From a virus (Duplodnaviria; Heunggongvirae; Uroviricota; Caudoviricetes): a DNA stretch of 31,580 nt. Under the pieces are notes generated by a model. The model was given only the letters and a program-made list of their open reading frames with translations. It made no database searches and had not been told where the DNA came from. The stretch spans positions 1 to 31,580 of IMG/VR virus record IMGVR_UViG_2700989363_000008. The stretch is one strand, 5' to 3'. Positions 1 through 19,900 of the stretch are shown piece by piece. Each line of letters starts with the position of its first letter. Positions within the stretch are counted from its first letter, which is position 1. The position numbers were made by a program, and so were the translations under genes.

Positions 1-3151
<3,151 letters not shown>

Positions 3152-3177
<26 letters not shown>

Positions 3178-4244: not shown

Positions 4245-4694
4245 CTATTTAATTAGTGATGCTGCGTATTCGATTAGATATAACTTAGGTGCCAACCAGA
4301 TTTTTAACCATGTCATATTGGTTACTACAGCAATAATAAAACTTACCCACAGAACAAAAACTGCTGCTAATGGTAAGATAAGAAAACTAATCTCACCGTT
4401 ACTTTCCCAAATCATAGTCGGTTTGTATTTAGGCTTCCCTTTTTCCCATGACCATCCTTCATTATCGAACTTACCAATTTCAACTTTTTGGTACTGTTTC
4501 TTCATAAACCAAATAACCAGCGGGATTGTTGAAATGGCTATTAATGTTTTAATCAGGCTATCAACCATATTCCATACCAGCAACTGATGAACAACATCCG
4601 GAATCTGAGCCTGACTGAATGCAATGGCGGAATCAATTCCATCGCTGGCCTTCTTCAATAAATCAACAAGAATTTTATTTGCTTCTTCTTGCAT
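4245..4694 (-). CDS. Small membrane protein (~149 aa, two predicted transmembrane helices), unknown function
   Basis: ORF 4245-4739; start preferred at the internal Met (4694), which has AGGA 6 nt upstream. Hydrophobic stretches LIKTLIAISTIPLVIWF and ISFLILPLAAVFVLWVSFIIAVV. AT-rich codon usage unlike the flanking phage genes. Confidence 0.55.
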   Translation of the reverse strand: MQEEANKILVDLLKKASDGIDSAIAFSQAQIPDVVHQLLVWNMVDSLIKTLIAISTIPLVIWFMKKQYQKVEIGKFDNEGWSWEKGKPKYKPTMIWESNGEISFLILPLAAVFVLWVSFIIAVVTNMTWLKIWLAPKLYLIEYAASLIK

Positions 4695-4818
4695 GTTTAT
4701 ATCCTGTAAGTTGTAAGCCTGTTCGAGAAAAATAAACAACTACGAGAGACAGAAAAAAATATCTCAGGCTCTCTTTCTATAAGCTTTTAGTTGAGGATGT
4801 TCTGCAAAACAAAACTGG

Positions 4819-5679
4819 TTAGTTATGTAACTGCTTCCGGAATACAACAGCCGACGAGCTACAACGTAAAATTCGTTTGATTGTGGCAGTTGAGGAAACA
4901 GACTTGCATTTCTCAACATCATCAATAATGACCACATCCGGTACAGGAATGACGCGGGTATGCAATGTTTTTGCACTAATAACATCACAGCCATTCAGTG
5001 GTCGAATATCTGCATCTTCAGGCACTACCAGAAGCACACGTTTTTCCGGTGCAGAAAAGCCAGCAGCAAGAGTGCGTGACAATAAAGTCATTCCGCTGCG
5101 TGGCTTCATACAAATTTCAGAAATATGATTCTTTTCGTCCAAATGATGCTGGACATCATTTTTATCATCACTCAACAACTCTGCTGTTAATACAATCCCT
5201 GCTGTCTCAGATTTCCAGGAAATGCTGATATCCTGATCATCTGCATCAACATCATATTTCATCGAGTAAGGACTAAAGCTACGTCCAACGAACGCATCAT
5301 TTACCAGTACACGCCCACCCTGTCTGACCTGAAAGTCAACGCGCCCGGAAAGCTGATTTGCTGTTACAAGCAATGCCTTTTTTCTTTTTGTTTTATTGCT
5401 CATTGCCACCAACTGTTCAGCCATCTCTCTTGTCACACTACCAGAAACTCTTCCTTGCATTTTCACAGAAAATTTTCTGGATGTAGTAGCATCGACATTA
5501 AAAAATCTGGATGTAATCAGGCAGTTATTAACAATTGGCATCAGCTCACTTACGATTGTAAAAAATTCCCGGTAAAGCTCATTTTGCTTTTCAACACACA
5601 GCTTTCCACAATCGTCCAGCTTACGCTCAAGAGCACTTAACCTTTCCATTATTGAATTAATTTTTTGCAACTCTTTCAT
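4819..5679 (-). CDS. Hypothetical soluble protein (286 aa) with N-terminal coiled-coil-like segment; first gene of cos-proximal cargo cassette
   Basis: Start ATG at 5679 is preceded by AGGAGGTTTT (reverse complement of 5681-5690). The track's longer 373-aa ORF is an artefact of upstream read-through across the palindrome. No motif I can assign by eye. Confidence 0.65.
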   Translation of the reverse strand: MKELQKINSIMERLSALERKLDDCGKLCVEKQNELYREFFTIVSELMPIVNNCLITSRFFNVDATTSRKFSVKMQGRVSGSVTREMAEQLVAMSNKTKRKKALLVTANQLSGRVDFQVRQGGRVLVNDAFVGRSFSPYSMKYDVDADDQDISISWKSETAGIVLTAELLSDDKNDVQHHLDEKNHISEICMKPRSGMTLLSRTLAAGFSAPEKRVLLVVPEDADIRPLNGCDVISAKTLHTRVIPVPDVVIIDDVEKCKSVSSTATIKRILRCSSSAVVFRKQLHN

Positions 5680-5702: not shown

Positions 5703-5720
5703 GTGCGACCACGGTCGCAC
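5703..5720. repeat. Palindrome family 1 copy (GTGCGACCACGGTCGCAC): F-sopC-like candidate SopB centromere site
   Basis: Perfect 18-bp palindrome 24 bp upstream of the 4819-5679 start codon. Core TGCGACC-AC-GGTCGCA differs from the F plasmid SopB box TGGGACC-AC-GGTCCCA at one position per half-site. Confidence 0.6.
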
Positions 5721-5798
5721 GCTCCTGAATACATGCCCTGTTTCTTCCACCCTCGCACAGGACTGGCGAGCATGAGGGACAAACCCGCGAATCATTAG

Positions 5799-5916
5799 TG
5801 CGGTAAAAACCCGGTGTGCATCGTTTTTGATTATTTCCGCACACTCGCGCAGAGGAGTTCCCCGTCGGGCTACGGTCATGGTTAATGCGGAAATACGGCG
5901 ACGATGCAGCGCGGTA
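5799..5916. repeat. Direct repeat copy 2 (pairs with 4013-4131)
   Basis: See copy 1. Lies in the upstream region of the 286-aa gene, between two family-1 palindromes. Confidence 0.8.
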
Positions 5917-5922
5917 TTTAAT

Positions 5923-5939
5923 GTGCGACCACGGTCGCA
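5923..5939. repeat. Palindrome family 1 copy (GTGCGACCACGGTCGCA)
   Basis: 16-bp perfect palindromic core TGCGACCACGGTCGCA between the DUF4406-like gene and direct repeat copy 2. Confidence 0.6.
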
Positions 5940-5959
5940 AACGAGAAACAAAGAGATTT

Positions 5960-6271
5960 TTATGCTACAGAGGAACAAGCTGGCGGGTAATTCAGCGTAG
6001 TGAATACCGGCATCTCCATCTTGTATGCGTAATGATACTCAGCAGTTGCTCCAGCAGACGCTTTCCAGCCAGGAAGCATCAAAATAGCATCAGCACAACG
6101 AAGCATTGCAAAGCAAATATCCATGTATTCACGTTGTGTCAAACCATTAGGCAAAGTGGCTGGATTCAAGACAGAGTGACCATGTCGTGACAAACGATCT
6201 GCCTCTTTATTAAAGGCGTCACGATTAAAGTTCTCATATCCCGTCATTGGCCCGGCAATATAAATTTTCAT
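5960..6271 (-). CDS. DUF4406 / nucleoside 2-deoxyribosyltransferase-like small protein (103 aa)
   Basis: N-terminus MKIYIAGPMTG... is the characteristic Rossmann-like start of the NDT-like/DUF4406 family as recalled. Sits in the moron position downstream of Rz (where lambda carries bor). Confidence 0.55.
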   Translation of the reverse strand: MKIYIAGPMTGYENFNRDAFNKEADRLSRHGHSVLNPATLPNGLTQREYMDICFAMLRCADAILMLPGWKASAGATAEYHYAYKMEMPVFTTLNYPPACSSVA

Positions 6272-6312
6272 TCACTATCCAACAAATTGAGCTCGTTTTT
6301 GATACAGAGGGA

Positions 6313-6750
6313 TTAATTCAGGCATTGCGTCTTGATGTATTCCTGCAAGTAGTTAACCTGCGCAGTTATCCTGTCGATCCCACTTCGGAGACGGTAATAA
6401 TTGAGTTCAGCATCTGCTGTAAGTCTTGGGCTTTCTCCATCGCCCATGCTGCTGGCTCCGGTCGTTGACTTTGCACAGGTGGCGGCGACTTGCAGGCGCT
6501 TACGCCCAGCAGAAACATCAGCACGGAGGCTTTCGATAGTCGCGTTAGCATCAGCAAGCTCCTTTGTATATCTGGCATCGAGTTCTGCTACGTCACGTTG
6601 ACGCTTCTGCATATCAGCGATTGTGGATGTGGCTTTATCGCGCTGCTCTTTGTAGGAGATGGCGTTATCACGGTAATGATTAACCGCCCATGACAGGCAG
6701 ACGATGATGCAGATAACCAGAGCGGAGATAATCGCGGTTAACCGACTCAT
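6313..6750 (-). CDS. Rz: i-spanin Rz (145 aa from internal Met)
   Basis: [39 protein letters not shown]... closely resembles lambda Rz from memory; N-terminal TM anchor then coiled-coil. Confidence 0.9.
6366..6551 (-). CDS. Rz1: o-spanin Rz1 lipoprotein embedded in the +1 frame of Rz (~61 aa)
   Basis: [33 protein letters not shown]...: signal peptide with lipobox-like GVSAC followed by a proline-rich segment, nested within Rz as in lambda. Confidence 0.75.
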
Positions 6751-6838
6751 GACATCAACACCCCAACGGCCAGAAACCACGGCCACGCATCGTTGCCATT
6801 AAATGCGAGCAACGCTGCCATGAAAAAGAAAATCATGC

Positions 6839-7339
6839 TCATTGCTGCCCCCACAAACAGACTTCACGCTCAATCTCACGACGAGTCATCAGGCCTTTCC
6901 ATTGCTTACCGCCAGCAGATATCCAGCGACGTAGCTGATCACATGCGCCTTTGATATCGCCCTGGTTTATTTTGCGAAGAAGCGTCGATGTTCTGAAATT
7001 ACCAGCGCCCACGTTGTAAACGAACGAGTAAAGAGCGCCGCGCGTTGTTTCCGGTATATCGACTTTGATGTACGGGTTAATTTGTCTGGCGACAGTGGCA
7101 AGGTCTTTATTCAGGAGAGCTTTGCATTCTGCTTCGGTATACGTTTTACCTAGCATGATGTCTTTTCCAGTGTGTCCGTAACATACAGTCCATACGCCAA
7201 CAATATCTTTGTATGGTATGTAACTGACACCTTCCAGACCATCGTTACCACTTGGGCCAGTGATGAGCATAGACGCTATGGCAATAGCCCCGCCACCAAT
7301 AGCAGCTGTGACAGCTTTGCGTAATGATGACTGCATCAT
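6839..7339 (-). CDS. R: SAR endolysin (T4-lysozyme-like muramidase with N-terminal signal-anchor-release domain)
   Basis: N-terminal Gly/Ala-rich weakly hydrophobic SAR segment [20 protein letters not shown], then lysozyme-like core ...[22 protein letters not shown].... Positioned between holin and Rz. Confidence 0.85.
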
Positions 7340-7608
7340 ATTTCCTTCGGTGCTCTCTTCCCCAGCTCTCCAATAACCATCGCTGTAGCAGAAAGATTAT
7401 TGGTATTAGTTTTATCCAATATGTCCTGCAATATCTTCGTGCGCTTCATCTGCTCGCGTTTATTGAGCCGGTATGTAAGCACACCGAGGATAATGCTGAA
7501 CGCGACACCGATAATGAAGCTCCAATCCTGCAATGACAGGCTGGCAAAGAACGCAGCAAGACCAGCGCTACCATAAGGTGCACTTCTGTATAGTTCATCC
7601 ATCTTCAT
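7336..7608 (-). CDS. S: Holin (class II / pinholin-like) with dual-start motif
   Basis: 90-aa ORF starting MKMDEL (Met1-Lys-Met3, as in lambda S), two hydrophobic segments, charged C-terminus; immediately upstream of the SAR endolysin with overlapping stop/start. Confidence 0.7.
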
Positions 7609-7703
7609 ATCTCTTACCTCGCAATAGTTGCTGAGGTTTCGGCTTGGAAACTATATGGCGAAAATAACCCCTACCAAAAACGGCAGGGGAATATATTCTC
7701 CAG

Positions 7704-8780
7704 TTACTCAAATAACTTTTTCACTTCATCAACTGTCTGAAGATAACGTTCGCCCTCAATCTCAATACCTATTGCCTGACGTCCTAACTTCAGCGCAGCT
7801 TTAATAGTTGAGCCTGATCCCATAAAGAAATCGGCAACGATATCTCCGGGGCGTGAACTACTCTTTATAATATGTTCCATCATCGCTGCAGGTTTTTCAC
7901 ATGGGTGCTTGCCAGGATAATATTGCACAGGAGGAAACTCCCATACATCGGTATAAGGTACATCAGCAGTAACATGAAATGGACGGCGTAAATTTTCATA
8001 CTGAGCCTTCAAATCATCATACTGCTTCTTTACTTCCTCATAATGCAATTTCAGATCGCTATAACGCTTTTCATGTTCTGAATAATCAACATTAAAAGGA
8101 TATGGACACGGGACACCGAGTGAATCTGCCTTCCTGCGAAATAATTCGCATAGTTTATAAAAATAAATAAATGATGGAAGCCGCCACTGCGAATAAGAAA
8201 ACCAGTGTGAACACATCTGCTTTCCTGTCGCTGAATTAATGTCTGCGGCTGATATATCTAACTGACGGCGAGCCAGCGAAAAAGCATCAATTAGTGGAGA
8301 AAAAATATTTTTTCTTAAATCTGCACATTTTGAAGCATAACCTGACTGACCTTTAGCATAACCTGACGCGCCGTAATGCTCTGCAAATAATATTCTTTCA
8401 GTAGCAGGAAAATAAGCCCTTAAACTTTCTTTATGACAACCGCGCCACATACCACTTGGTTTAGCCCAAATGATATGGTTCAGAACATTGAAACGGTCGC
8501 GAGTTAATAATTCAATTTTTGACGCAAGGCGAGAGCCGGTAAACATATACAGGCTGCCATTAGGGGCCAATATCCGCCAAAATTCTGCCAAAAATTCGTC
8601 AATCCACCCCAAAAAGTCAGCATCGCTATCCCACTGGTTATCCCATGCGTTAGCCTTTACGCCGAAGTATGGTGGGTCTGTTGCAATCAAATTGACCGAG
8701 TTATCAGGGATGGTTTTGATAAATTGCAGAGAATCTGCGCAAACGAGTTGTGCGCCATGAATATTAGTGGTTTTGAACAT
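7704..8780 (-). CDS. DNA methyltransferase, N6-adenine/N4-cytosine type (beta class; motif IV before motif I)
   Basis: DPPY motif near the N-terminus (NLIATDPPYFGV) and SAM-binding FFMGSGST near the C-terminus. Start ambiguous: 8780 preferred (MFKTTNIHGAQL...), 8825 alternative; neither has a strong SD. AT-rich. First gene of the apparent late transcription unit. Confidence 0.8.
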   Translation of the reverse strand: MFKTTNIHGAQLVCADSLQFIKTIPDNSVNLIATDPPYFGVKANAWDNQWDSDADFLGWIDEFLAEFWRILAPNGSLYMFTGSRLASKIELLTRDRFNVLNHIIWAKPSGMWRGCHKESLRAYFPATERILFAEHYGASGYAKGQSGYASKCADLRKNIFSPLIDAFSLARRQLDISAADINSATGKQMCSHWFSYSQWRLPSFIYFYKLCELFRRKADSLGVPCPYPFNVDYSEHEKRYSDLKLHYEEVKKQYDDLKAQYENLRRPFHVTADVPYTDVWEFPPVQYYPGKHPCEKPAAMMEHIIKSSSRPGDIVADFFMGSGSTIKAALKLGRQAIGIEIEGERYLQTVDEVKKLFE

Positions 8781-8872
8781 AGCTATTATTTTTTTGCCTG
8801 GGTAAGCTAACCCGGCGATGCGCATCGCGGGTGGGCTTTAGGTTCAGCCTATAGCTCTGGCATGGGTTGACC

Positions 8873-8898
8873 GCAGGACAAGCTGCAACTTGTCCTGC
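8873..8898. other. Hairpin: 10-bp inverted repeat GCAGGACAAG-ctgcaa-CTTGTCCTGC in the late leader region
   Basis: Seen directly; no U-tract. Could be a qut/pause or RNA-processing element; function not established. Confidence 0.3.
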
Positions 8899-8912
8899 GC
8901 CCACTTTTCAGG

Positions 8913-8940
8913 CACAAAAAAACCGCCATAAAGGCGGCTT
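8913..8940 (-). terminator. Rho-independent terminator (candidate tR'-like late terminator)
   Basis: On the minus strand: GC stem CCGCC-tttat-GGCGG followed by TTTTTTT (plus strand aaaaaaaccgccataaaggcgg). Lies upstream of the methyltransferase/lysis genes, analogous to lambda tR'. Confidence 0.5.
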
Positions 8941-9024
8941 GTTGGCTGTTGGGTACAAAAAACCCAACTTAACAAAACAATAACTAAAAACCGTCATTTT
9001 GCCAAGCTTTTTCGTTTTTGTGCT

Positions 9025-9042
9025 GTGCGACCGTGGTCGCAC
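9025..9042. repeat. Palindrome family 1 copy (GTGCGACCGTGGTCGCAC; extends to a 24-bp palindrome 9022-9045)
   Basis: Perfect palindrome in the intergenic region between ORF 9048-9275 and the late leader; central dinucleotide GT rather than AC (same site, inverted). Confidence 0.6.
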
Positions 9043-9047
9043 AGCTT

Positions 9048-9275
9048 TTAGAAAGTTGCCTGCTTATATTCATCGGTCAAAGAATATCGACCAGATCCGC
9101 TACGCTTTGCAACCCCAAAACAGATCATCTGTTCGATGATAAATTCAACGGCAGCTTGACTCAAAAAACAGGCTTCGCTTAACTCTTTCAGGGAAATGCG
9201 TGGGTATCCACGCATAACACATTCCACACTCAGGGCCGCTTCAGTCATATTTCCACGAATTTCATTAATATTCAT
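9048..9275 (-). CDS. Hypothetical small protein (75 aa), possibly a winged-helix DNA-binding protein
   Basis: ORF with SD AGAGAGG upstream of ATG 9275; ...ISLKELSEACFLSQAAVEFIIEQ... looks HTH-like. No confident family assignment. Confidence 0.4.
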   Translation of the reverse strand: MNINEIRGNMTEAALSVECVMRGYPRISLKELSEACFLSQAAVEFIIEQMICFGVAKRSGSGRYSLTDEYKQATF

Positions 9276-9288
9276 AACGCCTCTCTAA

Positions 9289-9510
9289 TCAATCTTGAAA
9301 CTGGAAATCAACATCAGCCATAAAGCGGTTCAACTCAGCCAGTTTTGGCCCCATAGTCCCAACTAAGCGACCAGCCAGTCGGTCTGTTAGGTTGGTACTG
9401 TTGAAACCATATTCCTTTTCGAAACGTTCAACCTTCTGCCACAACTCATACAGTTCGTTAGCTATCTCCGCAACATCGTCGCGCATTTTTTCGTTACCTT
9501 GATAATTCAT
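9289..9510 (-). CDS. Hypothetical small protein (~73 aa)
   Basis: Start preferred at the internal Met (9510), preceded by GGAGG 7 nt upstream; the track start at 9528 lacks an SD. Confidence 0.4.
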   Translation of the reverse strand: MNYQGNEKMRDDVAEIANELYELWQKVERFEKEYGFNSTNLTDRLAGRLVGTMGPKLAELNRFMADVDFQFQD

Positions 9511-9675
9511 AATATCCTCCAAATTCATATAGTTAGTGGGTTATTGCCTCTCAATGACACGAACTGTAACTCTGCCAAACGAACACATCCAGTGTTATTT
9601 TTCGCTTTTTAGTGAAATTTTTAATTTGCGTTGTTTTCTTGTTTTGGTGTATTTTATGGATATGGAGGCTATAAT

Positions 9676-9987
9676 ATGTTTAACGTGATAACCCACCCTG
9701 CAGCACTGGATGAACTGCTTGAACTACCAGATGATTTGCGAGGTCGCATGACCAGATTAATTGAGCGACTGGAGAAAGAAGGCAACAAACTGAAGATGCC
9801 CCATAGCCGTGTAATAGGTGGAGGGCTTTTTGAACTACGAGTAGGGGATAAAAACATCGCAAGAACGCTGTACGCCTACGCGACTGGTAACGAAATTTAT
9901 CTATTGCATGCATTTGTAAAAAAGACACAGAAAACACCGGTGAAGGCTATCGAAATCGCCAGAACTCGCCTGAAGGAGATGAACTGA
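9676..9987 (+). CDS. Type II toxin, HigB/RelE-fold (phage Gp49-like family)
   Basis: MFNVITHPAALDELLELPDDLRGRMTRLIERLEKEG...GGGLFELRVGDKNIARTLYAYATGNEIYLLHAFVKKTQKTP fits the Gp49/HigB signature as recalled. GGAGG SD before ATG 9676; stop overlaps the antitoxin start (TGATG). Confidence 0.8.
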   Translation: MFNVITHPAALDELLELPDDLRGRMTRLIERLEKEGNKLKMPHSRVIGGGLFELRVGDKNIARTLYAYATGNEIYLLHAFVKKTQKTPVKAIEIARTRLKEMN

Positions 9988-10274
9988 TGAAAGCGAAAGG
10001 CATCCCGTTTAACGAAGTAAAAGAAAAACTCCTCAACACTCCAGAAGCCGTCAAAGGATATGAAGAGGCCGACAAAGAGCTGGAGATGGTCGAAATGCTA
10101 TACGAAATGAGGGAAAGAGCAGGTTTAACGAAATCAGCTCTGGCTGAACGAATGGGGTTGCGACCGTCAGCCATCAGCCGCCTGGAAAGCAATCCTTTAG
10201 GGGCAAGTATGAAAACTTTGGCTAAATATGCTCATGCCTGCGGCGCAACCATCGATATTCGCGCTGTTTATTAA
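9987..10274 (+). CDS. HTH-XRE antitoxin (HigA-like), partner of the Gp49/HigB-like toxin
   Basis: 95-aa protein with HTH segment LTKSALAERMGLRPSAISRLE; translationally coupled to the upstream toxin. Only plus-strand pair amid minus-strand genes. Confidence 0.8.
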   Translation: MKAKGIPFNEVKEKLLNTPEAVKGYEEADKELEMVEMLYEMRERAGLTKSALAERMGLRPSAISRLESNPLGASMKTLAKYAHACGATIDIRAVY

Positions 10275-10316
10275 TTAGACTCTTTTACTACCCCGTCCAG
10301 AAGGGCGGGGTGTGCA

Positions 10317-10520
10317 TCAATGATGTGAACGCTCAACAGCGATAGTTTTCTGACAATGCTGGGCAATCTCTCGCGACATGTTGATGAGTCGTGAAACCTC
10401 ACCAATATGTAGGCTGGCTTCTGGAGAAGCCAGGGTGACGCTAACCAGATCCAGAACGGCGTCAATATCTCTTAAATTTGAATCGAGTTGTTCAAGAGTT
10501 GATACGGCTGCTTCAGACAT
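10317..10520 (-). CDS. Small protein (67 aa) downstream of a LexA box; candidate SOS-induced antirepressor or similar
   Basis: ORF MSEAAVSTLEQLDSNLRDIDAVLDLV...; the only gene immediately downstream (minus strand) of the LexA box at 10557-10576. Confidence 0.45.
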   Translation of the reverse strand: MSEAAVSTLEQLDSNLRDIDAVLDLVSVTLASPEASLHIGEVSRLINMSREIAQHCQKTIAVERSHH

Positions 10521-10556
10521 TAGATCTCATACCATTTAACTAAAAAAGGTTATTTA

Positions 10557-10576
10557 TACTGTATAAAATTACAGGT
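10557..10576. promoter_or_regulatory. LexA (SOS) box: TACTGTATAAAATTACAGGT
   Basis: Exact CTGT-N8-ACAG with AT-rich spacer, matching the E. coli consensus TACTGTATATATATACAGTA at most positions; about 37 bp upstream of the 10520 start codon. Confidence 0.6.
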
Positions 10577-10602
10577 TAAAACTCAAACTTTACGGTCAAT
10601 TT

Positions 10603-10845
10603 TCAATGAATTAACTGCGTAAACTGCTGTGTGGCCCGATACTTATGCTCTCTCCCTATGCCACGATCAACTTTCTCAAGAAGTCCAGTACGGACAGCAG
10701 AATCAAGCATCCTTTTAACAATTCTGCTATTTAACCCAACATCAAAAGCAAGCATCGAAGCGAAAACAAACCCATCACCACCATCAGAAAAGCTCTTTTC
10801 GCTCCGTTTTCGTATCATTTCAAAAAGCAATGCCTTTTTATCCAT
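10603..10845 (-). CDS. Hypothetical protein (80 aa)
   Basis: ORF with GGAGGG SD; a family-2 palindrome overlaps its ribosome-binding region. Confidence 0.45.
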   Translation of the reverse strand: MDKKALLFEMIRKRSEKSFSDGGDGFVFASMLAFDVGLNSRIVKRMLDSAVRTGLLEKVDRGIGREHKYRATQQFTQLIH

Positions 10846-10854
10846 TTATCCCTC

Positions 10855-10868
10855 CGTGACCAGTCACG
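10855..10868. repeat. Palindrome family 2 copy: CGTGACCAGTCACG
   Basis: Identical 14-mer also at 17509-17522 and, inverted, at 21371-21384. Confidence 0.7.
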
Positions 10869-11190
10869 CTTTGAGCGCAAGTTTCAGCCTCGTGGTTGTA
10901 AGGTGGCATGACCCTTCGCCATCAAAAATGCATTCTGAAACAGGCATTTTTTGACCACATCGCGGGCAAGTAGTAGATAGCTGCTTCTGCAGCTCCTTAT
11001 AGTTTTTCCTGATCAGCAAACCAATGACTTCGTTCTCCGAATATGGAACTCGCCCTGGTCTACGCAATACACAAATTTCCCCCAACATACGTAACTCGTC
11101 AGGTTCTAGAATCCACTCCCGTCTTGATGTGCCTTCCTTCTTCAACCGTTCCCTGCGTCTCCTTTGCCGTTCTGCCGGTGTCAGCGCCAT
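10864..11190 (-). CDS. Hypothetical protein (108 aa) with basic N-terminus and C-terminal Cys cluster (zinc-ribbon-like)
   Basis: ORF with SD CAGGAGGA; ...CPRCGQKMPVSECIFDGEGSCH.... Confidence 0.45.
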   Translation of the reverse strand: MALTPAERQRRRRERLKKEGTSRREWILEPDELRMLGEICVLRRPGRVPYSENEVIGLLIRKNYKELQKQLSTTCPRCGQKMPVSECIFDGEGSCHLTTTRLKLALKA

Positions 11191-11205
11191 AAATCCTCCT
11201 GAAAA

Positions 11206-11658
11206 TTACTTAACCCAATTAACTACACCGCCAGCGGCCACAACCGCCCTTTCACAGTCACGCTCATATCTCAAAGGTTGAAATACACCATCAATAAAAT
11301 ATTTATCTCCACCAAACGCTGCAGGAAGTGAAACAGAAAACTGAACATGACCATCCGGAGTTACCGGAGAGTTGCCAGCCTCATACGCCACACGCATCCA
11401 GTGCAGAAGCGTTTCAGTGCTCACACAGCCGCAATCAACATCAATTTTGCCGTGCTGCCGTTCCAGCCATTGCTCAAAAGTTAACTTGTAAGTTTGGCTT
11501 ACAGGTTCTGCACTATCAGCTTCGCGCCGCTTCTGTAGCTCTGCTGCCATCGCTCTCACGACTTCAACTGGTGCCCTTGCAGCAAACTCTATGTTGGTGA
11601 TCAGCTCATTAAGATATTGCTCGCCTGGATACTGTTTCTTATCGGTTATAGTGGTCAT
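11206..11658 (-). CDS. Hypothetical protein (~150 aa)
   Basis: Start at internal Met (MTTITDKKQYPGEQ...) preceded by AAGGAGAGTGAT-ATG, the same initiation cassette used by other genes in this operon. Confidence 0.5.
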   Translation of the reverse strand: MTTITDKKQYPGEQYLNELITNIEFAARAPVEVVRAMAAELQKRREADSAEPVSQTYKLTFEQWLERQHGKIDVDCGCVSTETLLHWMRVAYEAGNSPVTPDGHVQFSVSLPAAFGGDKYFIDGVFQPLRYERDCERAVVAAGGVVNWVK

Positions 11659-11659
11659 A

Positions 11660-12046
11660 TCACTCTCCTTTTCCCTGAAGCATAGCAGCGCGGCAGGCAT
11701 TCCAGCCTCTCACCTCTGCAATAGCGGCAACAGCATCAACCGCGTACATGCTAAGAGGATTAGGCATTGGTTTTTCTTCCGGTACTACTGGAACGGGTGG
11801 AGCGGCGTAGACCTCAATAATTCCATTATCAATAGGCCATTCTCCATCCTTGAGGTAGTCACTTGTGCCGTCAACTTGCTGTTCTGCAATGTGGAATGCA
11901 CCTATTGGTTTTGCTTCCAGCGATGCCAGAGCAATTCGTGCCAGTTCTTCCGCTTCTTCTGCTGGCAGTACAACGTTGCTACCAGGTCCGTATGTTTCGC
12001 GCCACTGTTTGATTGTCAGTAGTCGCTCTTTGGTAATAGTGGTCAT
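11660..12046 (-). CDS. Hypothetical protein (128 aa)
   Basis: ORF MTTITKERLLTIKQW... with SD AAGGAGT; N-terminus MTTIT shared with the downstream gene. Confidence 0.5.
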   Translation of the reverse strand: MTTITKERLLTIKQWRETYGPGSNVVLPAEEAEELARIALASLEAKPIGAFHIAEQQVDGTSDYLKDGEWPIDNGIIEVYAAPPVPVVPEEKPMPNPLSMYAVDAVAAIAEVRGWNACRAAMLQGKGE

Positions 12047-12056
12047 GTGTTACTCC

Positions 12057-12320
12057 TTAACCCGCAGTGCTTTCAACTGATGAGGGGAACAAAATCCTTT
12101 CATCAAATCCGGCATTCATATCATGGACAGCAACACACCAATCCATCGACGAACGATTATCAAGAGCCTCCATGATTTCATCCATGCGGCGCAGGTCATA
12201 CAGGTAAATGCTTTTATCGCCAATGGTGTAAAAACCAATTTTTTTCGGTGATGGGCAGCGATCAAGAACGTCCTGTAATTCGTTCAACCATGCCCGTTCT
12301 TTTTTTGTTAAAGTTGCCAT
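12057..12320 (-). CDS. Hypothetical protein (~87 aa)
   Basis: Start at internal Met (MATLTKKERAWL...) with SD AAGGAAAA. Confidence 0.45.
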   Translation of the reverse strand: MATLTKKERAWLNELQDVLDRCPSPKKIGFYTIGDKSIYLYDLRRMDEIMEALDNRSSMDWCVAVHDMNAGFDERILFPSSVESTAG

Positions 12321-12321
12321 A

Positions 12322-12540
12322 TCAGTTTTCCTTATACGGATTAATTTTATTGTGCAGTGTGTTGAATGACGCCCATACCACGTCGTTATACAATTCAATA
12401 ACTGGCTCAATTATTTTTCCGATTCCCCATACCAGAATTAACGGGGATATCGGTATCATCAACACGATAAACAGAATGAGAAACAAAAATTCTGTCGCTC
12501 TACTTTTTCGCGGATATTCTTTTCTGAATAATGTAGGCAC
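12322..12540 (-). CDS. Small membrane protein (72 aa)
   Basis: GTG start preceded by AAGGAGAGTGAT; hydrophobic core FLFLILFIVLMIPISPLILVWGIG. Confidence 0.4.
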   Translation of the reverse strand: MPTLFRKEYPRKSRATEFLFLILFIVLMIPISPLILVWGIGKIIEPVIELYNDVVWASFNTLHNKINPYKEN

Positions 12541-12541
12541 A

Positions 12542-12757
12542 TCACTCTCCTTTGTTAATCCTCAAAACTTTATGCCCGGGCGCAAAAGCACGCGTTTTGT
12601 CTTTGCTTATTCGCCAGCCATCCTTGCGCGCCTCTTTTGCACAGCCAGCCCATGACGTACCTATATACTCACCGAAGTCTGGCGACTTATATTTGCCATC
12701 TGTACACTGGAGGCAATCACAATAGAGATGCATGGTGTAACTTGCAGCGATAGCCAT
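12542..12757 (-). CDS. Hypothetical Cys-rich small protein (~71 aa)
   Basis: Start at internal Met (MAIAASYTMHLYCDCLQCTDGKY...) preceded by AAGGAGAGTGAT-ATG. Confidence 0.45.
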   Translation of the reverse strand: MAIAASYTMHLYCDCLQCTDGKYKSPDFGEYIGTSWAGCAKEARKDGWRISKDKTRAFAPGHKVLRINKGE

Positions 12758-12758
12758 A

Positions 12759-13280
12759 TCACTCTCCTTTGATGCGAATGCCTGTTGCAATGCTGTTTAT
12801 GATGCTGTCAGTGCATGGGGTAGAAAGCTGGGCATCTCCAGCAATTTTCATGACCTCAACATCCGCATATCGAATACCGAGGTGTATCAGACCGGCTATA
12901 CCTGACTTAAGTCGAACATTTTCCATAAACAGATCTTTTTCCCGCTGTTTAGCGGCTTCCAACTCCATCGACAATTTTTCCAACTGCTCTTTATGCTTCT
13001 TGTATTCCTGATACGCGTGCCAAGACTGACCTTTGCGCACACTATCAGTGATATCAGCAACCTGCTCCGGTGTTAGCGTGGTCAGTGGCTGTGCTGGAAA
13101 AATCATCACTTTCCCGGCATCCCAATCAAAACCCGCCTGAATTGACTGAACCTCAACTGATGGTGTTGAACCGATGCGACCAGGCGAATGAACAACGATC
13201 GTTACATCCATATCGCGACGATGGCTGTGGTTGTTGGACAAAATACGATTCACCAACTCAGAAAATTTGGAAAATTTCAT
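12759..13280 (-). CDS. Hypothetical protein (173 aa) with central coiled-coil
   Basis: ORF only; no family assigned. Confidence 0.45.
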   Translation of the reverse strand: MKFSKFSELVNRILSNNHSHRRDMDVTIVVHSPGRIGSTPSVEVQSIQAGFDWDAGKVMIFPAQPLTTLTPEQVADITDSVRKGQSWHAYQEYKKHKEQLEKLSMELEAAKQREKDLFMENVRLKSGIAGLIHLGIRYADVEVMKIAGDAQLSTPCTDSIINSIATGIRIKGE

Positions 13281-13567
13281 GCTGATCCCTCTTTCTCTGC
13301 TCTCTCCTGTCGGAACATCACTATCATCAGGTCGCCTTTTGTCGCTATCTTGGCTGTTGTGCCTGGCTCAATGCGGCTAAGTTCAAATGCGTCATAGAAC
13401 GCCTCTAACACTTTCTGGCGTCTTTCCTGTTTGCGGTGCTTTCCCCACTGCTTTAGAAAAACAGAGGCCGCCCACTTCCCCGCACTGAACATGATGTAAA
13501 ACCAACCGAGAAGTGCCAGACCGATATTTAGGGCCGTATCGATCGTTATCGTGGTGTCGATATTCAC
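13277..13567 (-). CDS. Hypothetical small membrane-associated protein (96 aa)
   Basis: Hydrophobic N-terminal segment LNIGLALLGWFYIMF; overlapping stop/start with neighbours. Confidence 0.4.
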   Translation of the reverse strand: MNIDTTITIDTALNIGLALLGWFYIMFSAGKWAASVFLKQWGKHRKQERRQKVLEAFYDAFELSRIEPGTTAKIATKGDLMIVMFRQERAEKEGSA

Positions 13568-13986
13568 TACGCCACCTCCTGTAAATTTCCCTGATAAAAA
13601 GCCAGCACACGCTGCATAACTTCACTTTTCCGGCAATCGTGACAAATCATGTTCAAGCGCCTGTCGTAACGACGTATTTCTCCGTCAGGTAATGACCAGA
13701 TAAGGTCTGGATCAACCACTACCGATTTCTTCGGCTTTACTCTTGATAGTTTTTTACGGGCGTTTTGCCAGTCCTTGCGTGCTTGTGCAGACAGAAATAT
13801 CCCGGAGCCAGAGATATACAAATCACCACTGGCAGCAAGCTCTCTTGATAAACGACTAACAGCACACCGGCTAATACCAGTTTCATCCGCAAGTTGCCTA
13901 ACCGTTCCTCGTCCATTCAGGCGCACGAGTTCCACAATTTGTTTATTCAGTTCTTCCCTCTGTTCTGGTGTAAAAGCCTTTGCCAT
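13567..13986 (-). CDS. Putative HTH DNA-binding protein (139 aa)
   Basis: HTH-like segment ...TVRQLADETGISRCAVSRLSREL...; C-terminal Cys/His pair. Confidence 0.45.
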   Translation of the reverse strand: MAKAFTPEQREELNKQIVELVRLNGRGTVRQLADETGISRCAVSRLSRELAASGDLYISGSGIFLSAQARKDWQNARKKLSRVKPKKSVVVDPDLIWSLPDGEIRRYDRRLNMICHDCRKSEVMQRVLAFYQGNLQEVA

Positions 13987-14585
13987 TACGATTCTCCTTG
14001 CCCTTTTACAAGACGGGAGAAAATTGCGGATACATATTTAGCCTGATGAATAGCATCAGCCAAGGCATTGTGTCGTTCGCCATCAAATGGCATATCTTTT
14101 TTAGGATTAAAACCAATAAACTGACCAAGATTAACGATTGTTCGAACATCCTGATCATTAAAATATTCCCACGGACAGGCTAAGCCAACGCGCTCATAAG
14201 CACCGCGTAAAATTACATTATCGAACGTTGCTCCATTTCCCCATACTTTCAACTTTTTTAAATTACATGCATGGCAAGTAATAAAGTGTGATAATTCAAA
14301 AAGTGCATCCTTAATATCAAGGGCATCATTAGTACAAATAGCGGCTCTGGCTTCCTTGCTCTGTTTCAACCACCATAAAATGGTATCACCATCGGCGATA
14401 CCTCCATTCAACATCGAGCTTCTGAGATTCACTGGCACATAAAAAGTAGGACCTAATTCCTCACTTTCTGGAGAAAAAAACACTGCCCCGATAGAAACAA
14501 TTGGAGCACATGTGTTAGTACCCATTGTTTCAAGATCAATCATTACATCAGACCGTTTCCTGTCGTAAATAATCTGATTAGTCAC
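13986..14585 (-). CDS. 3'-5' exonuclease, DnaQ-like DEDDh family
   Basis: Exo I motif MIDLETMG and exo III motif HNALADAIH; GTG start preceded by GAGGAGA. Typical of lambdoid early regions. Confidence 0.8.
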   Translation of the reverse strand: MTNQIIYDRKRSDVMIDLETMGTNTCAPIVSIGAVFFSPESEELGPTFYVPVNLRSSMLNGGIADGDTILWWLKQSKEARAAICTNDALDIKDALFELSHFITCHACNLKKLKVWGNGATFDNVILRGAYERVGLACPWEYFNDQDVRTIVNLGQFIGFNPKKDMPFDGERHNALADAIHQAKYVSAIFSRLVKGQGES

Positions 14586-14608
14586 GAATAATTCTCCTCA
14601 ACGTTTAT

Positions 14609-14812
14609 CTATACCCAAATTTTCTGTTGATATGTTCTGGATGGTTTTGGCGTTCTTTCTGATTCAGGTAAATGAACATAAACGCAATATCCATCACCTA
14701 AAAAATCAGAACGAACAACCAGAACTTTCTTACCACGCCGCCGATAAGTATCTGAAAGACGCTCTGCTTCATCATGCGTCATCGGCCCCTGCTTAAATGG
14801 CGTTATTTTCAT
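14609..14812 (-). CDS. Hypothetical small protein (~67 aa)
   Basis: Start preferred at internal Met (MKITPFKQGPMTHDEAERL...). The track's MRPWSH N-terminus is encoded by the palindrome and is probably not translated. Confidence 0.4.
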   Translation of the reverse strand: MKITPFKQGPMTHDEAERLSDTYRRRGKKVLVVRSDFLGDGYCVYVHLPESERTPKPSRTYQQKIWV

Positions 14813-15038
14813 TTTCTTGTGCGACCACGGTCGCACCCTCTCTGATTTCCAAGTAACGCTTAATCCAAAGATTTTCTATATGCTTATTACCTGGCTGATT
14901 TGATAAATACCAATCGGCAATTACAGACTGCTTATTACTATCTGGTCGTGTCCTGTAACCACAAGTTGGACACCAGATAACATATTCATTTCTTACCCCC
15001 GAATACCTTAATTCTGGCTTCGACGGTTTCCTGAACAT
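14793..15038 (-). CDS. Hypothetical zinc-ribbon protein (~81 aa)
   Basis: CPTCGYRTRP motif; start uncertain (15038 or 15113). Confidence 0.35.
   Translation of the reverse strand: MFRKPSKPELRYSGVRNEYVIWCPTCGYRTRPDSNKQSVIADWYLSNQPGNKHIENLWIKRYLEIREGATVVAQENENNAI
14819..14836. repeat. Palindrome family 1 copy (GTGCGACCACGGTCGCAC)
   Basis: Perfect 18-bp palindrome immediately upstream of the 14609-14812 start codon. Confidence 0.6.
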
Positions 15039-15045
15039 AACTTGT

Positions 15046-15756
15046 TTACAAAGGCAGAATGGCACTTCCTGCCCGATGGCGTTTGATGATTTCACTGCGC
15101 TTCTCCGCCGCATTTAATAATGCAGTTCGATTTAAGCTCAGACATCGCGACTTAATTAAAAGCCAGCGTTCTTTATAATCTTGTCTCCAGCTATCAATAG
15201 ATATATTCAGTAGAAAACTCAGATGCCTGTCCTGTTCTCTCTCATCAACTGCCTCAGCACACGTAAGTTCTGATTTAACCTGCTGTGCCGCGTAATAAAT
15301 CAATTTCCGCATGGCTTTTTTCGTGGAGGCCTTCATTTTTTTAAAGCCGCCCCCCGAATGAGCAACCAGAAAATCAAGCCATAACCACTGACAAACAATC
15401 ACATCATTGTTGTAATCAGGCTTGCATCCGTAGCAATAATAAAGCCAGGCTGATTCCTCGTTATTCAACTGACCAATAGCCCTGCGCCAGCTGGCGCTCT
15501 GAAAATCAATATCAGTGAGCAACATTGATGATTGTTTAAATGTTTTCCCCTGGTGGAATCTAACCGGCTCAGCAGGAACGGACACTTCGTATGAGTTATC
15601 ATCCCCCACACTGATTGACCGGACTGGTTTATTGTTAAACCGTCCTGACCTACCGAGACGCATCTGCTCAAGCTGGACCTCCAGAATGCCACGCTGGCGA
15701 TAATGAACATCAGCCAATGCCGTAGAGACGCAGCTGCGTATATACTCAAGCTCCAC
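15046..15756 (-). CDS. Regulatory protein candidate (236 aa) immediately downstream of cro; possible Q-like late regulator by position
   Basis: GTG start with AAGGAGA SD; follows cro in the same operon, where N15 is recalled to carry Q. No sequence-level confirmation. Confidence 0.4.
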   Translation of the reverse strand: MELEYIRSCVSTALADVHYRQRGILEVQLEQMRLGRSGRFNNKPVRSISVGDDNSYEVSVPAEPVRFHQGKTFKQSSMLLTDIDFQSASWRRAIGQLNNEESAWLYYCYGCKPDYNNDVIVCQWLWLDFLVAHSGGGFKKMKASTKKAMRKLIYYAAQQVKSELTCAEAVDEREQDRHLSFLLNISIDSWRQDYKERWLLIKSRCLSLNRTALLNAAEKRSEIIKRHRAGSAILPL

Positions 15757-15967
15757 GCTTACGACTCTCCTTAATCGACTGCTTTACCCGCCGAGTTGTA
15801 AAGTCACTCTTCAGCTTATAAGCAGTACGAACTTCAATATCGCTTTGCCGCAATGAAGGAATCTCTCCAGCGGTTAACCATTGGTAAACAGCTCCGGGTG
15901 TTACACCTACCCCTGCCGCTGCTTTTTCTACACTGCCAAAGTGGCGAATAAGTTCTTCTGGTTTCAT
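15746..15967 (-). CDS. cro: Cro-like HTH repressor (~73 aa)
   Basis: MKPEELIRHFGSVEKAAAGVGVTPGAVYQWL... is a classic HTH; divergent from the cB-like repressor gene across an operator-bearing intergenic region. Confidence 0.75.
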   Translation of the reverse strand: MKPEELIRHFGSVEKAAAGVGVTPGAVYQWLTAGEIPSLRQSDIEVRTAYKLKSDFTTRRVKQSIKESRKRGA

Positions 15968-15997
15968 GTTGTTATTATAAACAATAAACAACAATTA

Positions 15998-16036
15998 AAG
16001 CCAGCTATAATAAATAAATTTTATAGCCAGCTATAA
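15998..16036. promoter_or_regulatory. Candidate immunity operators: two copies of AGCCAGCTATAA (TTATAGCCAGCTATAA half-palindromes) between cro and cB
   Basis: 15998-16010 aagccagctataa and 16021-16036 ttatagccagctataa, about 25 bp apart in the divergent promoter region; arms TATAGC/GCTATA are mutually complementary. Confidence 0.55.
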
Positions 16037-16058
16037 GAAGATCATTTATGATTACAGT

Positions 16059-16655
16059 ATGAAAACACGAGGCGAACGACTGAAAGCACGCCGTTTAGAG
16101 ATGAAGCTGACGTTGCGAGAAGTTGCTGAGGCTGTCGATATCTCTATAGCAGGCGTCCAAAACTTAGAACGTGGCGACGTAATGCCGTCACTGGAGATAG
16201 GTATTGCCCTGGCTAAGTGCTTACGCAAGCCAGTGCATTGGGTGCTATATGGGACAGAATATGACCCTGACCGCATTCCTGTTATTGGCACAACTGAAAG
16301 TGGGCCGGATGAAGAGTGGAAGCCGGGACAGGTTCCAAATACTGAGCGATTCCTGCCATTCATCAGCCAGCGCAATACTGTGTATGCGTTAACTATCAGC
16401 AATCTTACGCAGGGAAACTATCAGCCAGGCGATTTTCTCCTGGTCGATTCTGCGCTGGAACTGGTCCCCGGCGAGGATGTTCTGGTTCGTGATACTGCAG
16501 GAAATATCACTATCCAGCGCCTGGCCCGTTTTGATGATGAAAATTACTATCTGGATGGAACAAACTCACAACGCGCCATCTTCAGGAAAAGCGATCTTGA
16601 ATTTGTTCACCAAATAGTCGGAACGATCAAATCATTCATGGTTGAGGGTAGATGA
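16059..16655 (+). CDS. cB: Prophage repressor, CI/CB-like (N-terminal HTH-XRE plus C-terminal S24-peptidase-like domain)
   Basis: N-terminus ...LTLREVAEAVDISIAGVQNLERG... (HTH) and a LexA/CI-like C-terminal fold. I cannot see an obvious catalytic Ser-Lys dyad, so it may be non-cleavable, as reported for N15 CB. Confidence 0.75.
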   Translation: MKTRGERLKARRLEMKLTLREVAEAVDISIAGVQNLERGDVMPSLEIGIALAKCLRKPVHWVLYGTEYDPDRIPVIGTTESGPDEEWKPGQVPNTERFLPFISQRNTVYALTISNLTQGNYQPGDFLLVDSALELVPGEDVLVRDTAGNITIQRLARFDDENYYLDGTNSQRAIFRKSDLEFVHQIVGTIKSFMVEGR

Positions 16656-16749
16656 CTTAATACGGGGTTTATTGTTTGCTGTAAATCTGGTTTAATGCAG
16701 GGCATATGTTCTGTGGGTTGACTCAGGTTACAGCAGCAGAAAAAAGACG

Positions 16750-16786
16750 AAAAAAAACCCGAGTCGGCAAACTCGGGTCCTTTTCA
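16750..16786. terminator. Bidirectional rho-independent terminator between cB and repA
   Basis: aaaaaaaa-CCCGAGT-cggcaaa-ACTCGGG-tccttttc: 7-bp GC-rich stem flanked by an A-run on one side and a T-run on the other. Confidence 0.6.
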
Positions 16787-16900
16787 GGAAGCAGCCACAA
16801 CAACGCGACGGATTCCGTCAATTCAAGATGTGTTTATTGTGGCTGCTCCTGCGGATTTTTTCAACCCGAAAAAACATAATTCGCATGGAATGGCTAAAAA

Positions 16901-19900
16901 ATGACATTAAACGATTTCTATGCGGATCGCTTTGGCAGCGATCCGTTCTCGCTAATTGAAGCAGCACGGGATGAACTAACCGAGCTGGCACAGATGGCTG
17001 GTATCAACTGGCCTGCCTGTTCCGACAACATCCAACTCAACCCTCGCGGGGGGGTTGAGCGTTACTCTTCATACAATAAAACATCTCCAGAAGCTCTCGA
17101 AAAGAGCCTGAAAGGACGCGTAGAAATTTACTCCCGGCTGGAACACAGCAAAGGGATTGATTACCCGTTCATTAACTTCGTCCATAAAGGCAGCGATGCT
17201 GGCTCATGGAGCGGTTTCTCCTTCCTGTTTTCTGAATATCGCCGTGAGCAACAACGGAATAATGCGACCGTGGTCGCACAACCGGAAGAAGAACGGGAAA
17301 GAATAGAACGTCAGGCCGAAGCACGTCGTCGCCGTGAAGAACAAAAACGAATTAATGACCTGAAAAACAACCAAATGGACCATGAACGTTTGCTGGGATG
17401 GCTGGCATTCCACAGCGCGTGGGAACATGCTCCGGCTGAAGACGGCTCATGGCCATATGCGATTAAAAAAGGTATTCGTGACGTTTTTAGTTCATGTGAT
17501 GTGCGTCGCGTGACCAGTCACGACAGTGCGAAATGGAGTCGGGGACCAACCACATATATGGCTATCCCTCTGGCTCACCTGGACGGTCGTTACGATGGTC
17601 GTATTGTGGGTTGGCAGCGAATCGACAAACAAGGTGGGAAATACCAGACCAGCGCAGTAACCAGCGGCGATTTCGTCGGTGCCTGCTTTGTTATCGGTGA
17701 GCTGAAAGGGGCGCAAAACATCGCTGTTACAGAAGGTTTTGCTACTGGTGCATCCATCTGGCTTGCCACGAAAAAAGATAAACGCTTTGACGCTGTGGTT
17801 GTCGCTGTATCCGCTAACAACATGGTTCATGTTGTGGAACAACTGGTAAACATGTACCCGGCGGCAAAAATCACCTGCGCACTGGATAATGACCGGAAAT
17901 CTGCCACAGAAGGAAAAGGGAATACCGGCCTGCGGACTGGCTATGAAATCTTATCGAAATTCAACGATGTCCGCTGCGTCTATCCAACTTTTGAAGACGA
18001 TCCGCAAATGGAGTGCAGTGACTTCAACGACCTGCACAAACTACGTGGACTTCGTGAAACAGCACGTCAACTATTTGCAACAGCAAACCGCCTGAAAACC
18101 GGTACTGATTTGCTATCTCTGACGCTCAACCGCCTGAAGACAATTAAGCGGGATAACCGTCGTACTTTTGCCAAAGAGCTGCTGAGAGCGGTGGATATTG
18201 GCATGCTAACCTGCCCGGTTCCTAACAGTCCGTCAGATTTATTTAACATGTTCTGCATCGTTCTGCGTGAAATGGGACTGGAAAATATCTATCGCGCTAC
18301 GGTAAAAGACCACATTGCCCGTCGCCTGAATAAAAAGTGCCGTATTGCCCAGGCTCCGCGCTCTTTCAGCGAAAGCATAACTGATCCCAATAAACGCCCT
18401 CAACATATCACCTATAAGCGTTTTGAAACTTCGGTAATGACCGATGATGTCCTGAAGTACGTGCAATCACTACAGGGGATAGTCATCGTCCGTGCTGGTA
18501 TGGGTTCCGGCAAATCTACTGGATTGTTACGACCGTTAATGCATAGCTCAGAACGTGGTATCTCTGTTGCTCACCGTGTCTCCCTTATTGGTGGCCTGTG
18601 GGAAATGATGACAGAAGGAAAAGGTGTAAAAGCCGATATCCTGCACTATCAGGACCCTGGCTATCAGGAAATGGCTCCATACGCCAGTAAACTGACCATC
18701 TGCATAAACTCGATTGTTAAAAACTGCTGGCAACCGTTGATGCGCCAGCACGACTATTTTGGCTTTGACGAGGCCACGCAAGGGCTACGTGCCGTTCTTT
18801 CCGGTCGGGCTATGGAAAACCCGGTTGCTGTATTCAATACGCTAATTGACGCGCTGGCCAGAACGGAACAACACCCAATCATGGTGGATGCTGATGCGAA
18901 CGATCTACTGGTTGACTTGGCTGAACTGGCTATGAAACGCCGTGAAGATCTAGGTTTACCGGCATGGCTGCAGATCCACGTAATTGAATTACCTGTTGAT
19001 GTTCGCAACCGCGAAACAGGTGAGCCAATCCGGGTTTTTTATACAGAAAAAGATCGCATCATGACCGAGGTGGTGAAAGCTGTATCGGATGGCGAAAAAA
19101 TCATGTTGGCCACCGACAGCTCCACCTTTGCAGAAGATGTGACAGCCACCCTGAGAATGCATTTTCCTGGTAAGAAATTTCTGTGCGTAAACCAGAAAAG
19201 CAAACAGGATGAAGAAGTCGATGCCTTTACCAACCAGCCAAAAGTAATGGTGATGAAATACGATGGACTGATCTACAGCCCGTCGATTTCCTCCGGGGTG
19301 TCATTTGAGAAAAAACATTTTGACCGTCATTTCGGCATGTTCTGCGGTGAAGTTGTGCCCAGCGACGCAGTGCAAATGCTACGCCGCGACCGTACAGCAA
19401 AAGAATTTATTATCGGCTTTGATAAAGCTCGTGCAAAACGCGAGACTGATCCGCAAAAAATAGAACGTGCATTCGCCCAGGCATTACTTGCTACCGCAGG
19501 CATGAACGGTGAACTGACGGATGTCGTTTTCGATGGCGACCGTATATCAATGGGGGTGGCCAATACCGACTTTACCAGGATGAAAATTAAAGCTGCCGCA
19601 ATTGAAGCGTCTGCGCGTAACGACTACGCCAGCAACATGATCTGCATCATGCACAGCGACGGTTATAAGGTATCGCCATTAGCTACCGATTATGCCGCAA
19701 ATGATTTTGGTAAAGAGCTGCGCAAAGAAGCGCGGGATATTGTGTGGGAACAGACGCTGGATCTGCACCTCAATACAGAGACACCAGAAGAATCAGAGCG
19801 TGAAGAACTACTAAAAAAACGTGCGCTAACGCTTGAAGAACAGGCAAAACTGGTCCGCTGGGATATTGAGAACGAACTGAAATTACCGGTTGAAGAAGGC

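Follow-up and report, generated by a model that had tools for sequence, protein, structure and literature searches.

The stretch of DNA analysed here (referred to as the window; 31,580 nucleotides, IMG/VR record IMGVR_UViG_2700989363_000008) is, judged by its sequence, an N15-like (Ravinvirus) linear phage-plasmid, an unannotated Escherichia coli relative of N15. It encodes homologues of the partition proteins SopA and SopB and carries five dispersed copies of a perfect palindrome, which are predicted to be SopB-binding centromere sites. DNA identity to Escherichia phages YDC107_1 and PhiR46_1 is 97-98% over ~88% of a 15-kb query, and the repA-cB-Q region is ~75% identical to that of N15 and phiKO2. 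Genes of the window were assigned by tblastn using the proteins of N15 as queries (Table 1), and this search located the SopA and SopB homologues at 25592-27723, as had been proposed when the palindromes were first noticed. A telRL-type palindrome between the protelomerase gene telN and sopA marks the element as a linear plasmid prophage.

Five palindromes dispersed over 11.6 kb

A search of the window with TGCGACCNNGGTCGCA (the pattern TGCGACC-NN-GGTCGCA) returned exactly five matches, all of them with zero mismatches, and no further match was present in the window at up to two mismatches. In 100 dinucleotide-preserving shuffles the mean number of matches was 0.08, and in none of the 100 were five reached. 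The original prediction, which described five dispersed perfect palindromes and considered their recurrence by chance to be negligible, is therefore confirmed, with coordinates right to within one base. The sites were named A to E (Table 1). Sites A, C and D have the 18-bp form GTGCGACC-NN-GGTCGCAC, and sites B and E are 17 bp long; the central dinucleotide of the window copies is AC or GT. The five sites span 11.6 kb and are located 9.5-21 kb away from sopB.

Three of the copies lie within ~25 bp of a start codon or promoter, as was also proposed originally. Site A ends 24 nucleotides (nt) upstream of the ATG (5679) of an open reading frame (ORF) of 286 amino acids (aa), just past its GGAGG ribosome-binding site. 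Site C follows the gp51 homologue at a distance of 15 bp and precedes the -35 element TTGGCA (9005, minus strand) of the predicted late promoter by 20 nt. Site D is contained in the final codons of a Lar-like ORF, and the ATG (14812) of a 67-aa ORF (phrog_1212) follows 7 nt downstream of it.

Correspondence with the centromeres of N15, phiKO2 and F

The palindromes had been read as dispersed SopB sites of the N15 type. Comparison with the published centromere of N15 agrees with this reading in sequence identity, in synteny and in the presence of sopAB, the known centromere of this phage family being the same sequence and not a different one. Oligonucleotides with which Lane's group assembled an N15 centromere from IR1-IR4 all carry GTGCGACC-NN-GGTCGCAC (PMC7205306, Table 4), and N15 SopB forms normal foci on a 4xIR array (PMC7205306). 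All five window copies match this published IR1-IR4 core exactly. In N15, the identical palindrome of 16-18 bp is likewise dispersed far from sopAB, in a linear prophage that possesses telN, telRL and homologous SopA and SopB proteins. Four palindromes were found in the N15 genome: one at 33480 within repA that has a single mismatch, one at 35931 following Q, one at 41125 that precedes the annotated -35 of the late promoter by 21 bp, and one at 45562 following gene 58. The genome of phiKO2 (NC_005857) possesses four perfect TGCGACCACGGTCGCA copies, at the places annotated by Casjens et al. (2004) as a 'putative plasmid partitioning site'.

Sites E, D, C and B of the window are syntenic with IR1, IR2, IR3 and IR4 of N15 and with the sites of phiKO2, the contexts in common with N15 being repA, the position after Q, the position before the late promoter and the vicinity of the end of the late accessory region. 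Site E shares its context with N15 IR1 and phiKO2 site 1, which lie in repA ~360-380 nt from its start. Site C is found in a conserved order consisting of the gp51 homologue, the palindrome, a conserved promoter, a terminator-like hairpin and a methylase gene. Differences are confined to a few points. N15 has four copies and the window five, the extra one (5704) lying 204 bp from the IR4 homologue, and no counterpart of site A was found in the N15 or phiKO2 genomes. The dcm gene 58, which N15 possesses between the DUF4406 gene and IR4, is lacking in the window, as it is in phiKO2. The four copies of phiKO2 are in the same contexts, one of them directly after the DUF4406 gene, but the fifth copy, the lambdoid-type element and the 286-aa gene are absent after its fourth site. 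PhiR46_1 and YDC107_1 have all five copies. The record of YDC107_1 (CP025712) looks like a palindromic assembly across the hairpin telomere, containing repA, the anti-repressor region and the protelomerase each twice and inverted, and this gives a spurious sixth palindrome at 45081.

The repA copy of N15 carries AGCGACC on one arm in GenBank, whereas that of the window is perfect. For this site (IR1, 33480-33495) the GenBank record also differs from the oligonucleotide, which has GTGCGACC (PMC7205306). As the AGCGACC variant occurs in three of 15 unique relatives, it either reflects natural variation or the oligonucleotide was idealised.

The arm of the palindrome differs by one base from that of the sopC box of plasmid F (TGCGACC versus TGGGACC), as originally claimed; the latter, TGGGACCACGGTCCCA (PMC3597684), is likewise a 16-bp inverted repeat and is recognised by a SopB homologue in the same type Ia partition mechanism. 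It has been described that F SopB is nonfunctional with the N15 sites, while N15 SopB also works on sopC (PMC7205306). In F, sopC consists of tandem 43-bp repeats directly 3' of sopB, whereas the window sites are dispersed. Neither an F-type box nor any tandem array was found near sopB of the window, and the only near matches to TGGGACCACGGTCCCA in the window are the five N15-type sites, with two mismatches each; an F-type sopC centromere was rejected on these grounds.

The protein expected to bind the palindromes possesses the SopB helix-turn-helix (HTH) domain (PF18090, 7e-25) and matches the structure of the DNA-binding domain of F SopB (3MKY, E = 2.4e-38). When aligned with the SopB proteins of N15, phiKO2 and PhiR46_1, the HTH region and the ELSAR motif are nearly invariant, the motif containing the equivalent of R219 of F SopB, a residue whose role has been described (PMC3597684). 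The SopB proteins of the window and PhiR46_1 share only 83% identity, against ~97% DNA identity for the two genomes. Most of this divergence falls in the C-terminal third, which indicates that sopB is mosaic. Two sopAB alleles were seen in E. coli plasmids, with >99% and ~91% DNA identity.

Conservation was assessed by a palindrome scan of IMG/VR with anchoring by tblastn, which gave 11-15 unique sequences per syntenic position (anchor proteins 50-100% identical to those of the window). At these positions the 14 specified bases do not change, with one exception: in repA the outermost base is either A or T. The central dinucleotide can be AC, GT, CG, AT or TC, and the flanks diverge; at the repA site, wobble positions vary in neighbouring codons and are fixed inside the palindrome. 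Since this first set had been retrieved via the palindrome, a recount was made with gene anchors and with loci obtained otherwise. The palindrome was perfect at 23/23 positions downstream of Q and 26/26 downstream of gp51, and perfect or with one mismatch in all 15 unique gene-anchored repA segments; more variation is seen at the position after the DUF4406 gene. No compensatory changes between the arms were seen across the relatives. Invariant arms, a free centre and this lack of compensatory change point to a site recognised by a protein rather than a hairpin. Seen across the sampled Escherichia, Klebsiella and Enterobacter relatives, such conservation comes close to experimental support for function. 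Many IMG/VR contigs with a single site and no similarity to the window were set aside as likely chance matches or unrelated phages, given the very large collection and a pattern of just 14 specified bases (a chance rate that was estimated, not computed).

Based on identity to the sites used experimentally in N15, synteny, family-wide conservation and the presence of sopAB, the five palindromes are predicted, with a probability of roughly 90%, to be the SopB-binding centromere sites of a type Ia SopABC partition system of an N15-like phage-plasmid. Sites E, D, C and B would be direct homologues of IR1, IR2, IR3 and IR4, respectively, and site A is an additional, probably redundant copy that was acquired with a lambdoid-type late-region module. 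The dispersed centromere system of N15 is already known; the modest novelty here is the fifth copy at 5704 with its lambdoid-type module.

Table 1. Palindromic sites, genes and other features of the window (percentages are amino acid identities to the N15 homologues)
Feature	Position	Strand	Remarks
Site A, GTGCGACCACGGTCGCAC	5703-5720		16-bp core 5704-5719; extra fifth copy, at the edge of the lambdoid-type conserved element; present in PhiR46_1, YDC107_1 and pAH01-1
Site B, gTGCGACCACGGTCGCA	5923-5939		16-bp core 5924-5939; 20 bp 3' of the stop of the DUF4406 (N15 gp57) gene; homologue of phiKO2 site 4, equivalent to N15 IR4
Site C	9022-9045		16-bp core 9026-9041 in a 24-bp palindrome with 11-nt arms; N15 IR3 homologue
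Site D	14819-14836		16-bp core 14820-14835; N15 IR2 homologue, downstream of Q
Site E	17263-17279		16-bp core 17263-17278; N15 IR1 homologue; 362 nt into repA, encodes ATVVA
sopA, ParA-type partition ATPase	25592-26758	+	93% to SopA (gp28); near-identical gene annotated by RefSeq in pAH01-1
sopB, ParB-type centromere-binding protein, SopB HTH domain	26758-27723	+	75% to gp27 (range 72-75%)
telRL-type palindrome (protelomerase target)	25115-25156		between telN and sopA
telN, protelomerase	23031-24944	-	77%
repA, replication gene	16901-20884	+	76% to gp37; holds site E
CB repressor	16059-16655		78%
Cro	15746-15994	-	87%
Q-like antiterminator	15046-15756	-	66% to gp40; ~6 kb from the late promoter
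gp46-gp52 and gp57 homologues		-	68-92%
Predicted late promoter, TTGGCA-17-TATTGT	9005-8977	-	counterpart of the annotated N15/phiKO2 late promoter beside IR3; -35 conserved in relatives
Terminator-like hairpin	8940-8920	-	between the late promoter and the methylase gene; equivalents annotated in N15 and phiKO2; presumed target of Q antitermination
286-aa ORF, function unknown, phrog_2571	4819-5679	-	ATG at 5679, in agreement with the RefSeq start in prophage L131
Late-region ORF, function unknown, phrog_3054	4245-4739	-	
cosN, lambda-type	3875-3886		
Terminase large subunit	1252-3177	-	87%

Rfam matches above the gathering score were obtained for c4-a1b1, isrK and C4 antisense RNA at 21431-21631 (plus strand), the position of the anti-immunity locus (antirepressor control) of N15, and for IS009 RNA at 27790-27993 (minus strand), just 3' of sopB.

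Site A, its lambdoid-type module and boxes in integrated prophages

The 190-bp interval between sites A and B (5724-5912) is ~93% identical to lambdoid phage DNA located between the lysis genes and cos, and the homology to lambdoid phages stops at the palindromes. A second, more diverged copy of this ~190-bp element is present at about 3950-4160, beside cos, and the element is conserved at 84-93% in many lambdoid phages. No match to it was found in Pfam, PHROG or Rfam. In 40 unique homologues, the variable sites fall 20/20/22 by codon position and show no periodicity, and the element is thus, judged from these sequences, probably non-coding. A 65-aa ORF in the A-B interval (on the late-sense strand) was dropped, having neither a family match nor codon periodicity. 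The long invariant stretches of the element point to a function as non-coding DNA; in prophages, a 60-aa hypothetical protein is annotated by PGAP on the other strand.

At 3920-3942, 33 bp from cosN, the window possesses a different perfect palindrome, AAAATGATAA-CCA-TTATCATTTT, which may resemble a Fur box. At this spot, two close relatives, L021 and the plasmid pAH01-1, and lambdoid prophages carry the SopB-box palindrome instead. pAH01-1 consequently has five perfect copies and one degenerate copy (with palindromes at 30697 and 32701), the extra perfect copy beside cos being shared with L021 (10744) and the degenerate one being a B allele, AGCGACCACGATCGCA. In L020, another relative, the IR3 site is duplicated in tandem (1785 and 1832, 47 bp from each other). 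The number of centromere copies in the family therefore ranges from four to six, and turnover is concentrated between the DUF4406 gene and cos. The phrog_3054 and phrog_2571 ORFs form a cassette with the palindromes that is common to N15-like plasmids and chromosomal lambdoid prophages; in one such prophage (L132), an IS5-family element directly adjoins the phrog_3054 homologue.

The origin of this DNA raises a different possibility for site A, one that is tenable but doubtful: that it and its cos-proximal equivalent do not serve partition but belong, as passengers or with a function, to a mosaic lambdoid late-region module that is exchanged between integrating lambdoid phages and N15-like phage-plasmids. 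The palindrome would then have a SopB-independent role (for instance as a hairpin, or as the target of a protein, that affects late transcription or the 286-aa gene or acts near cos) or none at all, and binding by SopB would be incidental. This concerns site A only and is compatible with the centromere reading of the other four sites. The ~93% identity of the A-B interval to lambdoid phages and its end at the palindromes fit this account, and site A is alone among the five in having a T-rich tail and being flagged by a terminator scan. An integrated lambdoid prophage of E. coli M18 carries the perfect 18-mer ~85 bp from cosN; in AR_0077, a complete prophage with an integrase, O/P-type replication genes and Q, the palindrome is one base off, and in phage 2B8 a symmetric two-base variant occurs. 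No cos-proximal palindrome was present in Lambda_4C10, D2 or mEp332. Variants seen in lambdoid phages include GTGCAACCGTGGTTGCAC and GTGTGACTGTGGTCGCAA.

The module as a whole (DUF4406 gene, site B, element, site A and 286-aa ORF) is complete in 26 complete E. coli genomes, and among the full-length module matches, records of at least 4.7 Mb are chromosomes. Two chromosomal copies that were read with 20-kb flanks are located in integrase-bearing prophages, and sopAB was not found in the 40-kb regions read around chromosomal modules. Perfect boxes on E. coli chromosomes were located at 20089 (L129), 20055 and 20275 (L131) and 20055 (L132). Out of 5,426 complete genomes, 15 carry the sopAB type of the window, and these 15 do not include any strain with a chromosomal module. 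Site A was perfect in 10/10 sampled copies, seven of them chromosomal.

Other results speak against this reading of site A. In 82 IMG/VR contigs retrieved via the conserved element and not via the palindrome, the cos-proximal site is the perfect 18-mer in 37 and GTGTGACTGTGGTCGCAA in 28; ten lack it, and seven have other variants with 1-3 mismatches. That it is so often decayed asymmetrically or deleted argues against a conserved SopB-independent function near cos. N15-like plasmids of the window lineage, by contrast, keep five to six copies. The perfection of the 16-mer on chromosomes says little on selection, as the modules are 96-99.7% identical: site A is perfect everywhere, and the degenerate B allele AGCGACCACGATCGCA (two mismatches) is shared by four chromosomal copies and pAH01-1, from which it is considered one inherited allele. 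A comparison of plasmid and chromosomal boxes, made with a view to perfect copies on the former and decayed copies on the latter, is for this reason uninformative about selection on boxes outside phage-plasmids.

Two points weigh against the centromere reading overall. Window SopB and N15 SopB share just 72-75% identity, the C-terminal third of the former being mosaic, and site A and its cos-proximal counterpart are often perfect in prophages of strains without the sopAB type of the window. Owing to such orphan boxes, the presence of a palindrome is by itself no proof of selection for partition at that position. It is possible, although unlikely, that these boxes matter in their own right, either because incoming SopB would load on resident prophages or because N15-like phages co-opted, as a centromere, a palindrome that has a second, SopB-independent function near cos.

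Partition model and effects on gene expression

The palindromes are very unlikely to be operators of another dimeric phage regulator controlling late or moron genes, such as the winged-helix gp51 homologue beside site C. The gp51 homologue has a weak winged-helix signature and three sites lie close to a promoter or start codon, as noted above, but precisely this sequence has been attributed to N15 SopB (PMC7205306), the palindrome is one base per arm from the F SopB box with no sign of another binder, and a site inside repA makes little sense as an operator. A function as RNA hairpins (intrinsic terminators or attenuators) punctuating transcription units is scarcely credible: N15 GenBank 45560-45584 (IR4) is annotated as a 'putative rho-independent terminator' stem-loop, and each palindrome can be folded as a hairpin of 6-10 bp (site A being terminator-like), but a U-tract in the direction of transcription is lacking at sites B, C, D and E, one site lies 362 nt inside the essential repA and one upstream of the late promoter, the arms are invariant around a varying centre with no compensatory changes, and these sequences serve N15 as SopB sites. 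The intrinsic terminator reading was rejected because the T-rich tail is restricted to site A and site E is inside repA.

Nucleation, spreading and activation of SopA are established features of type Ia ParABS systems and of the N15 system. By analogy, a dimer of window SopB would recognise each 16-bp inverted repeat via its HTH domains, load at the palindromes and spread to adjacent DNA, and the five sites over 11.6 kb would give rise to a partition complex. This complex would stimulate SopA, and SopA-driven movement over the nucleoid would separate the plasmid copies before division. Binding, spreading, stabilisation and effects on neighbouring genes are expected of the window proteins from what is described for their relatives.

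A second role is most likely, again by analogy, for sites D (after Q) and C (before the late promoter), which may couple the Sop complex to Q-dependent late transcription. In a 2008 study by Ravin, Rech and Lane, the Sop system of N15 is reported to facilitate late gene expression; IR2 and IR3 mutants reportedly delay lysis, and Sop and Q together reportedly raise expression from the late promoter. For the native N15 late promoter the effect reported in that study is stimulation and not silencing. The geometry is kept in the window, where Q is ~6 kb from the late promoter, site D follows Q and site C precedes the promoter. Silencing around centromeres by ParB-type proteins has precedents in P1 ParB-parS, F SopB-sopC and N15 SopB on 4xIR. 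In the last case, a weak promoter located ~50 bp from the 4xIR array was silenced when N15 SopB was induced (PMC7205306). Local repression of adjacent genes by spreading of window SopB is therefore plausible by analogy. Given this precedent and the conserved geometry, the suggestion made originally that the partition complex also silences adjacent genes is reasonable but not new.

The map of predicted centromere sites presented here covers an unannotated lineage of phage-plasmids (PhiR46_1, YDC107_1, pAH01-1 and relatives) and ties it to the studied N15 system, which helps annotation, the prediction of incompatibility and the use of N15-based linear vectors. Potentially new biology is limited to the variable copy number near cos and to the perfect boxes in integrated prophages. 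If the orphan boxes do matter, the turnover of copies between the DUF4406 gene and cos, with four, five or six sites per element and a tandem duplication in one relative, would show how a dispersed centromere grows. If SopB does load on chromosomal boxes, this would lead to titration of the centromere or incompatibility, to silencing or stimulation of late genes in the resident prophage, or to tethering of the plasmid, and the prophage boxes could in this manner mediate cross-talk between phage-plasmids and resident prophages.

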